Below are positions 1 to 8,857 of a stretch of 8,857 nucleotides of DNA, piece after piece. The stretch is from a virus (taxonomy: Duplodnaviria > Heunggongvirae > Uroviricota > Caudoviricetes). Below the pieces are notes generated by a model, which ran no database searches, had not been told where the DNA came from, and saw only the letters and a program-made list of their open reading frames with translations. Every line of letters begins with the position of its first letter. Position 1 is the stretch's first letter. The position numbers were made by a program, and so were the translations under genes. Location of the stretch: positions 1 through 8,857 of the IMG/VR virus record IMGVR_UViG_2534681772_000005; one strand, written 5' to 3'.

Positions 1-283
1 CGGAAGCCTGGCGAAGGATATCGTTACTGCGGCGCAGTTCACGATTTTCACGTTCCAGCTCTTTCAGACGCTGACGTTCAGCGGTGGTGAGCCCGCCATC
101 ACCGCCTCCGGTATCCCGCTCATGCTGGCGTACCCAGACACGCAGAGTCTCCGGTGTACAGTCAATCTTTGGGGCAATGGAACAAATTGCCGCCCACTGT
201 GAGTCATATTCGCCCTGACTTTCCAGAACCATACGAATCGCCCTCTGACGGACTTCGGGGGAAAAACGAGTATTTTTAGTCAT
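1..283 (-). CDS. IS3-family transposase OrfA (DNA-binding subunit), N-terminal 94 codons, partial (runs off the window)
   Basis: ATG at 283..281 preceded by GAGG-type RBS in the terminal repeat; translation [94 protein letters not shown]; HTH plus leucine-zipper-like heptads typical of IS3-family OrfA. Confidence 0.85.
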
Positions 284-337
284 CCTGTTTACCTCTTTCT
301 CAGGAAGTTTAGTCTCCAGGATTCCCGGGGCGGTTCA
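1..337 (-). mobile_element. IS3-family insertion sequence (IS629/IS1203-like), partial: left terminal inverted repeat plus 5' part of orfA; element continues beyond the window start
   Basis: Reverse complement of 284..337 reads TGAACCGCCCCGGGAATCCTGGAGACTAAACT..., a TG-initiated terminus typical of IS3-family elements. It is followed by an orfA start (ATG at 283..281) whose product begins [23 protein letters not shown]..., which I recognise from memory as IS629/IS1203 OrfA. It is identical to the copy at 8507..8857 except for one base. Confidence 0.85.
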
Positions 338-1259
338 CTTCCGCGCCACCAACTGCCTTTGTGAATTGCTTCGTCATATTCCCGGCGTCATTGAAAAAGC
401 CAATGATGTCGCCATGATGTTTCTCAATCCAGGAACCAAAAGCCTTCATTCCGTCAATAACGTCAGGAGCAAATGCCATGGCTAAATTTTGCTTTAATCG
501 GGAAAACTCTGAATCAAGTTGACCAAGAGTGGCGGCAACCTTTTCCTGCTCTTTTACCTGCTGTGCGGTAATACGGGATTTCTTTGTTTCTGAATCGACA
601 AGCTGCTTAAGTTCCCCTGATTTTATTTTAGCGGCATCTGTCGGATCGAACCCTGCGGCCGCCATCACCTGCATCAGGTTTTCTTGAGAATGAGTCTTGC
701 CATAGCGAGAAAACTCAGCAAGAGCCTTGTTTGGGTCACCGAGCTTATTGATATCTAATCCGGTACGAGCGCCAAGAACCAGCAAATTTTGGGCAGCGCC
801 AGTAAGCCCTCCCATAACAGTTGGATCGGCAATATTTGCCAAAGCCATTCTGGCATTCCCAGAAGATGAAATGAACGAGTCACCGTTAAGACCAGCCTGC
901 CGAAATCCCCGCTGAACACCAAACATCTTATTAACATCAGAGCCGAAAAACTTGGCCTGTTGACTGGCTCTCACAATTTCGTTGGCAGTAGATGTAAAAA
1001 GTTGCTTGATTCCATACAACCCGGCGCCGATTCCCAAAAATCCAGCGGCTGCTGTTGTCACGTTGCGGAAGGCTGAAACAGCGGTTTTACCGAACCTCTC
1101 CGTTTCCTGTCGCTGTTTTTCAAGTTCCTTTAGCCTTTCCTTCTCAGCCCTGGAAAGATCTTTGTTTAATTTACTAACTTCATCTTTTACTTTCCGTTTT
1201 CCATTCAGGAATTCATCGGCCTTAATTGTGACCTTGTAGGCCAACTCATTGATAATCAT
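309..1259 (-). CDS. Phage tail tape measure protein, N-terminal ~307 codons; 3' end interrupted by the IS (last 8 codons and stop are IS-encoded)
   Basis: Lies immediately downstream of the chaperone pair with an ATGA start/stop overlap at 1256..1259 and an AGGAG RBS 5 nt upstream. The N-terminus is a charged coiled-coil-like stretch ([24 protein letters not shown]) followed by a Gly/Ala-rich hydrophobic segment, as in tape measure proteins. The reading frame crosses the IS boundary at 337 and ends NRPGNPGD-stop inside the IS terminal repeat. Confidence 0.6.
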
Positions 1260-1474
1260 CGCTGCTCCTGATGTTTATTCCAGACCCGCTTGTTAAATGA
1301 TTCCACCGAGATAATTTCCAGAAGGTTATACATATCACGAACAGATAACCGTTCCTGTAAATCGGTATAAGTGGCTTTTCCTGAACAGATAATGGCGTTC
1401 ATTGATGGTGTGACGTTTACGGGGCTAACGAGTTTTGCCGGAAGAGTCTCCTCTTCCATGAACGGGTACTTCAC
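1256..1474 (-). CDS. -1 frame extension of the tail assembly chaperone (T-like part of a G/GT-type pair); probably made only as a frameshift fusion
   Basis: The frame is open from 1495 and lies in the -1 frame relative to the 135-aa ORF. Its annotated start is GTG overlapping the upstream stop (GTGA), with no independent RBS. It sits directly upstream of the tape measure gene. Confidence 0.5.
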   Translation of the reverse strand: MKYPFMEEETLPAKLVSPVNVTPSMNAIICSGKATYTDLQERLSVRDMYNLLEIISVESFNKRVWNKHQEQR

Positions 1475-1878
1475 TCTCCGGCGATCGTTAAAAAATCAAA
1501 ATTGACTTTAAATACTTTATCCATTACCTGACGAATGGTTGATACCTCTTCAAAGTCGACAGGCTTCACGGTTCGCACCTGTCTGCTGCCTTCGTGTGTA
1601 ATCACAATTTGCACAGTTGACATCAGGCGATCACGAAGTTTTCTGGCGACTTCCGGCGATGCAGCAGAAATAACATTCAGACCAAGGGTGGCAAGGCCAG
1701 CACACCCCATGGCAATCACATCAGCAGGAATACCAGAGAATCCCGATTCCCCCATGGAGCGGAACAAATCCTGTGCCAGTTCGTCGGCATCCCATGCCGA
1801 CATCTCTGTGATAATGAACTCTTTCCCATTGTCGCGATTATCGTCTTCCACGATAAAGGGGATTTCTTTACGTGCCAT
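1471..1878 (-). CDS. Phage tail assembly chaperone (G-like)
   Basis: 135-aa acidic protein between the tube and tape measure genes; start ATG overlaps the upstream stop (TGATG); contains the slippery heptamer near its 3' end. Confidence 0.55.
   Translation of the reverse strand: MARKEIPFIVEDDNRDNGKEFIITEMSAWDADELAQDLFRSMGESGFSGIPADVIAMGCAGLATLGLNVISAASPEVARKLRDRLMSTVQIVITHEGSRQVRTVKPVDFEEVSTIRQVMDKVFKVNFDFLTIAGE
1489..1495 (-). other. Candidate programmed -1 ribosomal frameshift slippery heptamer T_TTT_TTA
   Basis: Minus-strand 1495..1489 reads TTTTTTA in X_XXY_YYZ register with the zero frame of the 135-aa ORF (codons GAT TTT TTA). It lies 7 codons before that ORF's stop, and a -1 slip enters the open frame of the 72-aa ORF (..FFNDRRRVKYPFMEEE..). 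Confidence 0.55.
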
Positions 1879-7553: not shown

Positions 7554-7556
7554 TTC

Positions 7557-8477
7557 TTAGCTCCGTTTCAGTTTAGTTGCGCCAGGAAATGCCTTGGCGA
7601 AAGAATTGGTTGCAGCAGAATCCATCCCCATACCATGAGATGGTTTGCGAACTACCGCTTTCTGGCTGATAGCAAATTCAACCATCGATTTAAGTGCTGA
7701 AGGATGAACGCCTTTATGTTCGGCACCGATTGAATCAAGAGCAAAGCGATAAATAGACTCTGCGGAATCCATAGCGACCAGACTCACATCACCAACCAAA
7801 GCACGAACACATTCTCGAGCCTCATTGGCTTGACGGATACGCCCCATCACATTCTCTTCAGCTTTTCGAATCAATGCGGCATCCATAGCTGCTTTATTCT
7901 CATCATCGTCTTCATCCTCGGCAGTCTTTTTATCCTTGCCGTCATCATCTTCGTCTTCCGCTTCTTTGCGGTCACGATCGCGATCCTTTCGCTCACGTTC
8001 TTCACGCTCTTTTAGTTCATCCTCTTCACGTTTCAGACGCTCTGCTTCTGACTCATTATCTCTCTCAGCCTGAGTGGCTTCGTCTTCAACAACCTTTTGC
8101 ACTTTCTTTTCCACTTCTTCTGGCTTCTCATCACTTGCCAGCATCGGCGTGATAACTGCCATCAACTTTTTAGTAAGTTCTGACATTGATTTCATTCCTG
8201 TTGGTATTGAATCCCCGACAACAACGTCGGATCCGGCTCTTCCCTCTGTTACGAGAGCAACGTGGTTCCCGACGATATCGCGCATTACACCATCGTATGG
8301 CTGGCCTTCATGCACGCCGGGGGTCATGTCAGCTACATATCTGTAGGCCGACGAAAGTTCTTTCTTCTCGTCTGTCTCGATTCCAGCGATAGAATCTGCG
8401 TCCCATACGACAAGCGAGTTCTTGAGATAAGTCCCGTCAAACTCAGCATCAGTACCAGTAGAACCAACCACAGCCAT
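7557..8477 (-). CDS. Putative head scaffolding/maturation protein with an acidic charged region; possibly 5'-truncated by the IS
   Basis: 306-aa ORF with an extremely charged middle (residues ~115-196, KREEDELKEREERERKDRDRDRKEAEDEDDDGKDKKTAEDEDDDENK) typical of scaffold proteins. First ATG at 8477 has only a weak RBS. The frame stays open upstream through the IS junction at 8506/8507 until a stop at 8534..8532. Confidence 0.5.
   Translation of the reverse strand: MAVVGSTGTDAEFDGTYLKNSLVVWDADSIAGIETDEKKELSSAYRYVADMTPGVHEGQPYDGVMRDIVGNHVALVTEGRAGSDVVVGDSIPTGMKSMSELTKKLMAVITPMLASDEKPEEVEKKVQKVVEDEATQAERDNESEAERLKREEDELKEREERERKDRDRDRKEAEDEDDDGKDKKTAEDEDDDENKAAMDAALIRKAEENVMGRIRQANEARECVRALVGDVSLVAMDSAESIYRFALDSIGAEHKGVHPSALKSMVEFAISQKAVVRKPSHGMGMDSAATNSFAKAFPGATKLKRS
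7890..8135 (-). repeat. Low-complexity acidic/charged coding tract (E/D/K/R-rich, RD and ER dipeptide runs) within the scaffold-like gene
   Basis: Translation of this segment is about 80 residues of almost pure E/D/K/R; the DNA shows reiterated GAAGA/GATGA/CGNGA units. Confidence 0.6.
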
Positions 8478-8506
8478 CTTCTGAGGGTCTGCAGCAGTAA
8501 CCGGAA

Positions 8507-8857
8507 TGAACCGCCCCGGGAATCCTGGAGACTAAACTCCCTGAGAAAGAGGTAAACAGGATGACTAAAAATACTCGTTTTTCCCCCGAAGTCCGTCAGA
8601 GGGCGATTCGTATGGTTCTGGAAAGTCAGGGCGAATATGACTCACAGTGGGCGGCAATTTGTTCCATTGCCCCAAAGATTGACTGTACACCGGAGACTCT
8701 GCGTGTCTGGGTACGCCAGCATGAGCGGGATACCGGAGGCGGTGATGGCGGGCTCACCACCGCTGAACGTCAGCGTCTGAAAGAGCTGGAACGTGAAAAT
8801 CGTGAACTGCGCCGCAGTAACGATATCCTTCGCCAGGCTTCCGCTTATTTTGCGAAG
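8507..8857 (+). mobile_element. IS3-family insertion sequence (IS629/IS1203-like), partial: left terminal inverted repeat plus 5' part of orfA; element continues beyond the window end
   Basis: 8507 begins TGAACCGCCCCGGGAATCCTGGAGACTAAACTCC..; orfA ATG at 8561. It is the inverted counterpart of 1..337, with a single difference (C at 8539 versus the equivalent of T at 305). Confidence 0.85.
8561..8857 (+). CDS. IS3-family transposase OrfA (DNA-binding subunit), N-terminal 99 codons, partial (runs off the window)
   Basis: Translation [99 protein letters not shown]; identical over the shared length to the minus-strand copy at 1..283. Confidence 0.85.

Follow-up and report, generated by a model that had tools for sequence, protein, structure and literature searches.

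Inverted IS629-like ends bounding a prophage head-tail contig of Escherichia coli DEC13B probably mark two separate insertions

Results

The window analysed here (the whole stretch of 8,857 bp, IMG/VR record IMGVR_UViG_2534681772_000005) corresponds from end to end to contig AIHG01000044.1 in AIHG01 (GCA_000250335.2), the draft assembly of E. coli DEC13B. Prophage head-tail genes fill the 8,169 bp (338-8506) between the arms of an inverted repeat, 1-337 and 8507-8843, each 337 nt long and far more similar than expected by chance (336/337 identical; Table 1). The inner edge of both arms starts with TGAACCGCCCCGGGAATCC and then runs outward into orfA, which begins at an ATG at 283-281 of the minus strand on the left and at 8561-8563 of the plus strand on the right; both orfA stubs match PF01527 (HTH_Tnp_1). 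The repeat search and direct reading of the ends thus confirm a preliminary description of two inverted IS629-like left ends facing inward at 337 and 8507. The contig ends in these IS stubs, 337 nt on the left and 351 nt on the right, and on both sides phage DNA gives way to IS DNA precisely at base 1 of the terminal repeat. The left IS reads in the same direction as the tape-measure gene, and the right IS lies in opposite orientation to the DUF2213 gene. The sole mismatch between the arms (305 A versus 8539 C, plus strand) had been taken as the mark of two distinct copies, and this is borne out: the corresponding C/T difference at IS position 33 recurs among other copies of the same IS.

Table 1. 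Features of the 8,857-bp window.
Feature	Position	Strand	Evidence and remarks
Left IS629-like stub	1..337	-	IRL 313-337; orfA from 283 to 1 (its first 94 codons), outward; IS position 33 = T
Presumed left IS target site	338..340	.	CTT on plus strand, AAG in IS/gene orientation; presumed, since the three other copies have 3-bp duplications
Tape-measure / lytic tail protein, 5' part	338..1259	-	922 nt, codons 1-307 plus 1 nt; phrog_2013 lytic tail protein, phrog_9570 tape measure
Small ORF, -1 frame of chaperone gene	1256..1474	-	phrog_3976
Tail assembly chaperone	1471..1878	-	phrog_1932, E 1e-51; T_TTT_TTA slippery heptamer at 1495-1489
Tail tube-position protein, E217_Gp32 family	1878..2312	-	PF22764, phrog_1964; RefSeq label 'phage tail fiber protein'
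Tail sheath (DUF3383 / E217_gp31_N)	2324..3814	-	phrog_205 tail sheath, E 3e-103
Tail terminator / neck terminator	3811..4326	-	PF23961, RefSeq name, phrog_1876
Three head-tail connector genes	4323..5666 (4323-4700, 4669-5235, 5235-5666)	-	phrog_1912, phrog_222, phrog_302; types listed: E217_gp28-like, Neck1/tail-completion-like, DUF4054/E217_gp27-like
Conserved 115-aa phage protein	5679..6026	-	phrog_2085
Major capsid protein	6030..7070	-	phrog_264, E 4e-94; RefSeq 'major capsid family protein'
Capsid cement / decoration protein	7074..7553	-	PF22758 Phage_cement, phrog_2122
DUF2213 head maturation protease / scaffold-like, 3' part	7557..8506	-	950 nt; intact protein phrog_2229 head maturation protease, E 9e-173
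Right IS target site	8504..8506	.	GAA, repeated on far side of IS; window reads ...AACCGGAA then TGAACC
Right IS629-like stub	8507..8857	+	IRL 8507-8531 and first 99 codons of orfA (8561-8857), outward; IS position 33 = C

The names of the structural proteins in the window come from PHROGs and Pfam, NCBIfam having given no useful ones. The small ORF overlapping the chaperone gene is probably its frameshift extension.

Compared with a complete IS3-family element of E. coli TW10590 (1,310 bp), the right stub is identical to the IRL end at 351 of 351 positions and the left at 336 of 337; this element has 25-bp inverted repeats (TGAACCGCCCCGGGAATCCTGGAGA / TCTCCAGGAAACCCGGGGCGGTTCA) and a GGG target duplication. 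A size of about 1.3 kb and imperfect terminal repeats of the form TGA...TCA are those of the IS3/IS629 group; the window itself shows IRL ends only, and an IRR is found on another contig (L004, below). Translated frame by frame, orfB lies in the -1 frame relative to orfA, and the PGAP annotation mentions a 'programmed frameshift' and an AL1L pseudoknot, in agreement with the IS3-family orfA/orfB layout with a predicted programmed frameshift. The 108-aa OrfA matches NF033516 at positions 1-86, a match under the cut-off that covers the OrfA part only. PGAP names the variant of DEC13B and TW10590 'IS3 family transposase' only; we call it IS629-like from comparison with an O157 copy that PGAP labels 'IS1203 family' (95.0% nucleotide identity, gapless, over 1,310 bp), not with an ISfinder reference. 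This identity falls inside the 4-5% spread of IS629 sub-types (PMC3271280). IS629 (isoforms IS1203 and IS3411), as known from O157:H7 prophages, shares the length of 1,310 bp, the IS3 family, orfA/orfB, the frameshift and 3-bp duplications (PMC3271280).

Where the phage genes are cut can be read from the prophage of TW10590 (ETEC), the intact relative whose comparison had been suggested: window 338-8506 is 100% identical to it, and TW10590 has no IS at either site and both genes intact, which places both junctions inside phage reading frames, as first described. The tape-measure/SLT (lytic transglycosylase) gene is cut after nucleotide 922 of 1815, in codon 308 of 604, severing the C-terminal SLT transglycosylase domain (aa ~405-555) from the part in the window; its open frame extends 9 codons into the IS to a stop at 309-311, and the resulting 316-aa tape-measure/IS fusion product is WP_000586131.1, known from AIHG01000044.1 alone. 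The DUF2213 head-maturation-protease gene is cut after nucleotide 277 of 1227, in codon 93 of 408: of the two options given before for the scaffold-like gene, inside or just upstream, it is the former. The first 92 codons of DUF2213 lie outside the window, beyond the IS, on another contig.

That contig, L004, an IMG/VR contig of 5,832 bp, carries in order the IS 3' end with its IRR, GAA, the remaining 5' end of the DUF2213 gene, and the head morphogenesis, portal, TerL and TerS genes, which is the native order; past GAA it is collinear with L001 28170-33377, with 2 SNPs. The junction reads ...GGTTCA, GAA, TGTGTTCG, L004 219-221 aligning to L001 28167-28169, that is, to window 8504-8506. The duplication that was to be looked for is therefore present on both sides of the right IS, in the window and on L004. 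L004 was placed in DEC13B by rare exact proteins and accession order, not by record name: its TerS is exactly EHX54182.1 [DEC13B], a sequence on only 3 contigs of the protein collection, and the head morphogenesis protein is EHX54185.1 [DEC13B], in agreement with the gene order of L004. A third IS629 copy in DEC13B is a simple insertion too, with a GCT duplication, so that the duplications seen (GAA, GCT, and GGG in TW10590) have the 3-4 bp typical of IS629 (PMC3271280). At least three IS copies are directly seen in the DEC13B prophage, with a probable fourth break between its contigs.

On the left side, the 3' half of the tape-measure gene is found in the same assembly, on a 5,977-bp contig: it begins no more than a few codons away from the cut, with the native neighbouring genes after it. 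This continuity is known from the protein records of the contig, not from junction DNA. Two exact C-terminal tape-measure fragments, EHX54056.1 (266 aa, DEC13B) and WP_024182781.1 (292 aa), belong to this one contig; the latter is not partial and begins at the first start codon, 5 codons past the cut. Ant is EHX54059.1 and the 271-aa protein EHX54060.1, a numbering that puts the contig in native order. The genes that had been sought past the IS copies are thus found on both sides, the tape-measure 3' half here and portal, TerL and TerS on L004. A prediction can be made for the left target duplication and for which end of the IS lies against the tape-measure 3' half: a simple insertion would give ...CCCGGGGCGGTTCA + AAG (or GAAG) + AGGCTCTGAAGCTATTGG... 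at the IS end of the 5,977-bp contig, its outer join having the form ...AACACTCTCCAGGAAACCCGGGGCGGTTCA-AAG-AGGCTCTGAAGCTATTGGCAGC....

We searched for these junctions elsewhere. Neither inner junction is spanned in any of 5,426 complete E. coli genomes, and neither has a match in IMG/VR. The left outer junction had no match in the IMG/VR scan; the six IMG/VR contigs that carry the tape-measure 3' half are intact relatives without the IS. Homology searches for truncated partners with the full-length tape-measure and DUF2213 proteins listed full-length homologues. ORFs predicted for duplications of 2-5 bp, four of them crossing the junction and others fusing the N-terminal part of DUF2213, had no exact match in the protein collection. 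This absence is uninformative, because a real 146-aa DUF2213 fusion ORF that L004 physically carries is likewise missing there, not having been called as a gene.

Discussion

The window is, with a probability of about 0.88, a repeat-bounded contig that records two separate, ordinary IS629-like insertions in prophage genes, and no new mobile cassette. IS arms stand at both of its ends because the assembler halted inside a repeat: the IS is multi-copy, and assembly therefore reached only about one read length into each copy. In this the window, which breaks off inside a multi-copy IS after 337 nt on one side and 351 nt on the other, does not differ from other repeat-bounded draft contigs, and two more contigs of DEC13B, L004 and L012, likewise begin or finish in the IS. 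Terminase, portal and baseplate genes are indeed missing from the window, as first noted, because the contig boundary falls there, and not through loss. A draft contig that ends on either side in inverted IS stubs bears an assembly signature, which is no evidence for a composite element.

The prophage shared with TW10590 would have received several independent copy-out/paste-in insertions of the 1,310-bp IS629-like element, one into the tape-measure/SLT gene and another, in opposite orientation, into the DUF2213 head-protease gene. In each case a simple insertion would have duplicated 3 bp at its own target site, and the prophage would run on in native order on both outer sides. The preliminary description had itself named two independent simple insertions as the outcome that would speak against its reading; the right junction is of just this kind and the left nearly so, judging from the gene remainder and its neighbours. 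We infer in what physical order the contigs lie and that the phage no longer functions: the tape measure would be parted from its lytic domain, the head protease beheaded and the late operon subject to polar disruption, so that virion morphogenesis would be lost and a crippled, immobilised prophage would be left. Nothing would be deleted or moved, and the inactivation of a prophage by independent simple insertions is well-known IS629 behaviour.

Formally, this arrangement offers a substrate for inversion, as had been pointed out, since the two copies are inverted, 99.7% identical over their visible part and 8.2 kb apart. After two simple insertions, homologous recombination between the resulting inverted 1.3-kb IS629 copies could have turned the 8.17-kb segment around, or could keep it flipping. 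Recombination within the IS bodies would keep all four junctions and both duplications unchanged, and the orientation of the segment is invisible in the data for DEC13B, which consist of short contigs, because no junction sequence would be altered. We regard this as unlikely: there is zero positive evidence for it, native order is the default after two insertions, neither junction occurs in a complete E. coli genome, so that neither orientation has been observed, and no function is expected because both cut genes remain broken either way. It is also quite unlikely that the head-tail block is actively flipping in DEC13B or mobilisable from its two inward-facing IRL ends; if it were, a fragment of a prophage late operon would be a recombination-driven or transposase-driven module.

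The resemblance to a composite transposon, also suggested before, fares worse. Two copies of one IS do bracket the segment, and IS3411, an isoform of IS629, flanks the citrate-utilisation transposon Tn3411; on this reading the two IS copies and the segment would make up a composite (or inside-out, IRL-IRL) transposon, by which the head-tail cassette was, or still can be, transposed in one piece. With Tn10/Tn5-type composite transposons (Tn3411 for the IS629 group) the window shares the inverted copies of the same IS around a segment, but there are key differences: (i), the target duplication GAA belongs to the right IS alone, in place of one around the whole IS-cargo-IS unit; (ii), to the left and to the right the segment is flanked by the prophage it belongs to, with which the flanks and the cargo are collinear, so that the cargo is neither foreign nor found in more than one context; (iii), the cargo is a fragment made of two truncated genes and structural genes, with no selectable function; and (iv), the unit is found nowhere else, its junctions being in no other complete E. 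coli genome nor in IMG/VR. Past movement as a unit is contradicted by the native context and by the GAA around the right IS alone, and we hold the composite reading to be very improbable.

The IS ends could also be an assembly artefact (chimeric contig ends), the prophage really being uninterrupted as in TW10590. Both IS arms do lie at contig ends, and neither insertion is present in the complete genome that is nearest; against this, each join coincides with the very first base of the terminal repeat, a reciprocal IRR junction with the matching 3-bp duplication (GAA) lies on a separate contig, the tape-measure gene is annotated as two fragments on two contigs that meet at the same point, and the arms differ at a site polymorphic among other IS copies. 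We therefore reject mis-assembly, whose probability is very low. Finally, an IS-mediated deletion or other rearrangement that lost the packaging and distal tail genes and left an isolated head-tail remnant has the absence of these genes from the window in its favour and nothing more, and is of negligible probability, being refuted by the TerS, head morphogenesis, Ant, 271-aa, 317-aa and baseplate assembly proteins present in DEC13B with sequences identical to those of TW10590 and by the portal, TerL and TerS region of L004 that directly adjoins the right IS.

Read as two simple insertions, the locus is one further case of IS629-type elements piling up in, and disabling, a prophage, with little significance beyond bookkeeping. 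As in other pathogenic E. coli, the IS is multi-copy in the genome, prefers prophages and breaks prophage genes (PMC3271280); in O157 genomes 62% of the IS629 copies are located in prophages or prophage-like elements (PMC3271280). The case differs from those of O157:H7 in the host lineage (DEC13B, with a prophage that matches that of ETEC TW10590) and in the type of prophage. DEC13B and TW10590, with prophage segments identical or nearly so, form a clean before/after pair for the target choice of IS629.

The prophage joins a lambdoid early part to an E217-like-myovirus late part; the window matches the Pfam families E217_gp27, gp28, gp31_N, Gp32, Pa193_gp24 (DUF2213) and Phage_cement of the E217/Pa193-like myovirus module. 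The best match in the phage database is just 70% identical (Vibrio phage IKEMa6-1), and the same morphogenesis module, at 98-99% identity, is present in about 20 complete E. coli genomes. Compared with the E217/Pa193-like module of lambdoid prophages in Enterobacteriaceae, that of DEC13B is broken up by the IS.

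Two IS629-like ends on one draft contig

The window is best accounted for by two IS629 insertions that arose independently and face opposite ways, in a prophage accumulating IS copies. IS629 insertion in prophages is a known phenomenon, viewed here through a draft assembly. From first base to last the window is contig AIHG01000044.1 (GCA_000250335.2; 8,857 bp), the only contig with an exact match to the 316-aa ORF formed by the tape-measure N-terminus and nine IS-encoded residues; according to protein records, the source strain is E. coli DEC13B. It follows that the IS arms are the contig ends, a contig ending in a multi-copy repeat being the usual assembler outcome, and so the lack of terminase, portal and baseplate genes, noted in the preliminary description, says nothing about the genome.

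The inner edge of each arm opens with TGAACCGCCCCGGGAATCCTGGAGA and continues outward into orfA, and gene calls for the contig place PF01527 (HTH_Tnp_1) on both orfA stubs, confirming two inward-facing left IS ends with orfA reading outward on each side. Both ends were read directly and differ by a single mismatch (305 A versus 8539 C); the position-33 polymorphism is shared with other copies, and the first structural reading, of two separate IS copies each lying within a phage gene, is right. Identity is 351/351 for the right arm and 336/337 for the left arm against one end of an IS3-family element annotated on the E. coli TW10590 chromosome. This element measures 1,310 bp, has 25-bp terminal inverted repeats, is flanked by a GGG target duplication, and encodes orfA with orfB after it in the -1 frame, with a programmed frameshift annotated by PGAP. 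"IS629-like" seems a fair name from sequence comparison, short of an exact ISfinder assignment, because this element is 95.0% identical, gap-free, to an O157 copy given the name "IS1203 family" by PGAP, and because IS1203 and IS3411 are treated as IS629 isoforms, sub-types diverge by 4-5%, target duplications span 3-4 bp and 62% of the IS629 copies in O157 genomes lie in prophages or prophage-like elements (PMC3271280).

Coordinates of features in the window, in the corresponding prophage regions of TW10590 (L001) and TB354 (L002), and on two further contigs of the same IMG genome (L004, L012)
Feature	Location	Strand	Basis or context
Inverted repeat, 337 nt	window 1-337 vs 8507-8843		
Left orfA ATG	window 283-281	minus	direct reading
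Right orfA ATG	window 8561-8563	plus	direct reading
Tail assembly chaperone, tube, sheath, terminator, connector proteins, major capsid, cement protein			genes between the cuts
Slippery heptamer T_TTT_TTA	window 1489-1495	minus	six codons ahead of chaperone stop (ORF 1471-1878)
Small downstream ORF	window 1256-1474		entered directly by -1 frame from heptamer
Short imperfect direct repeats	window 7761-8133		some at 114-nt spacing (families D1, D5)
Third IS629-like copy	L004 5427-5832 and L012 1-306		between Gp49-family gene and lysis module (TW10590 L001 ~33375)
Portal-position protein, 511 aa	L001 29320-30855; L002 29320-30855		two different RefSeq names
DEC13B accession jump	L001 14462-14764		outside the window
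Unrelated IS3-family element	L001 9540-10768		beside shortened DUF2612 baseplate-wedge gene
IS629-like copy	L001 46478-47787		beside ssb; annotated ssb start overlaps IS end
Extra sequence, ~1.03 kb	L012 ~6913-7940		primase/helicase gene (Toprim + DnaB-like)
ORFs holding the extra sequence	L012 6148-7167 and 7164-8552	minus	

The interrupted genes

The inner 8,169 bp (window 338-8506) are 100% identical to TW10590 chromosome 2766851-2775019, where neither site carries an IS, and recur at 98-99% identity in some 20 further complete E. coli genomes. The TW10590 segment belongs to a prophage adjoining tRNA-Arg/intS that combines lambdoid early genes with an E217/Pa193-like myovirus late module. 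Mapped onto the intact genes, both junctions fall inside phage reading frames, as first described: the left IS breaks into the SLT/tape-measure gene (604 aa) after nt 922 (codon 308), parting the N-terminal portion from the transglycosylase domain (~aa 405-555), and the right IS interrupts the DUF2213 gene (408 aa), whose intact product is a head maturation protease according to PHROGs (phrog_2229, E 9e-173), after nt 277 (codon 93). Judging from these disruptions, the prophage is likely unable to build tails or mature heads.

The direct repeats lie in the part of the DUF2213 gene that encodes a strongly acidic linker rich in Glu, Asp and Lys, probably a scaffold-like low-complexity sequence. 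The heptamer and its two ORFs resemble the programmed frameshift (G/GT-type) typical of tail chaperones, here directly upstream of the tape-measure gene.

Sequence beyond each IS

IMG/VR was scanned for the right terminal inverted repeat (IRR) followed by 0-8 nt and the bases with which the intact DUF2213 gene continues, and one contig matched (L004, 5,832 bp). Its first 218 nt are an IS 3' end with 100% identity to that of the TW10590 element, followed by GAA and TGTGTTCG...; from there it follows TW10590 collinearly (2 SNPs in 5.2 kb), taking in the DUF2213 5' end, head morphogenesis, portal-position protein, TerL, TerS and a Gp49-family gene. The portal-position and terminase genes lie past the IS. 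Because the window reads ...AACCGGAA directly before the left repeat (IRL), GAA flanks the right IS on both sides, a 3-bp target duplication that, by sequence, marks a textbook simple insertion. We assign L004 to DEC13B because its TerS is exactly EHX54182.1, a sequence on only three contigs of the whole collection (one being the IS-free TW10590 chromosome), its head morphogenesis protein is EHX54185.1, and the three-step accession gap agrees with its gene order. The 511-aa protein is an "anti-CBASS protein Acb1 family protein" in TW10590 RefSeq and a "DUF1073 domain-containing protein" in TB354, a split that may be an annotation-rule artefact.

The missing 3' half of the tape-measure gene is accounted for at protein level: an exact look-up finds its C-terminal part in DEC13B as EHX54056.1 (266 aa), re-annotated by RefSeq as the complete 292-aa WP_024182781.1, both on one 5,977-bp contig. 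The 292-aa start is the first start codon available past the cut, 5 codons downstream, and an ATG 11 codons upstream of the cut is unused, which puts the break a few codons at most from the window junction. Since neighbouring accessions, Ant (EHX54059.1) and a 271-aa protein (EHX54060.1, ECDEC13B_4802), follow the native TW10590 order downstream of the tape measure, the left remainder is present and in context. We infer both its target duplication, expected to be AAG, and which IS end abuts it. The 5,977-bp contig would be IS-bounded at both ends, because the next genes' accessions are non-adjacent and 0.5-0.7 kb are left over beyond the phage sequence. Accessions jump from EHX54060 to EHX54020 (317-aa protein) and EHX54022 (baseplate assembly protein), indicating a further contig break, probably another IS, within the baseplate plug gene or close to it.

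Alternative explanations

Recombination between the inverted IS copies could have inverted the 8.17-kb block and would leave all junction sequences unchanged; no function would follow from it, and we consider it very improbable. The composite-transposon-like unit or rearrangement suggested at first finds no support: past movement of such a unit is contradicted by the private GAA duplication of the right IS and by the native context of the segment on both sides, and neither the complete E. coli genomes nor IMG/VR contain the window junctions. Against a deletion stands the fact that DEC13B still has the genes thought to be lost. Mis-assembly is contradicted by joins that coincide exactly with the IS termini, by the reciprocal junction and by the shared position-33 polymorphism.

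Other IS copies and variation in the prophage

In the DEC13B prophage, simple insertions recur. L004 ends in the IRL of a third IS629 copy, whose partner junction lies on L012 with a GCT duplication, again a simple insertion. At its 3' end it shares only 97.4% identity with the TW10590 copy, so a minimum of two or three IS629 sub-variants is present in the DEC13B genome; variant positions are 33 (C/T), 378 and 405. The TW10590 copy of the prophage is itself IS-hit at two places. The extra sequence in the DEC13B primase/helicase gene is absent from the TW10590 gene, otherwise 99.9% identical; it begins right after the P-loop (GHGKA|CPLDEP...), ends at ...VATHN|T, and contains LLGDGS and LLETDGY motifs with a sub-threshold Hom_end_hint match. 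It resembles an intein carrying a LAGLIDADG homing endonuclease, which DEC13B has and TW10590 lacks. The split of this frame into two ORFs on L012 is either a real frameshift or a homopolymer sequencing error.
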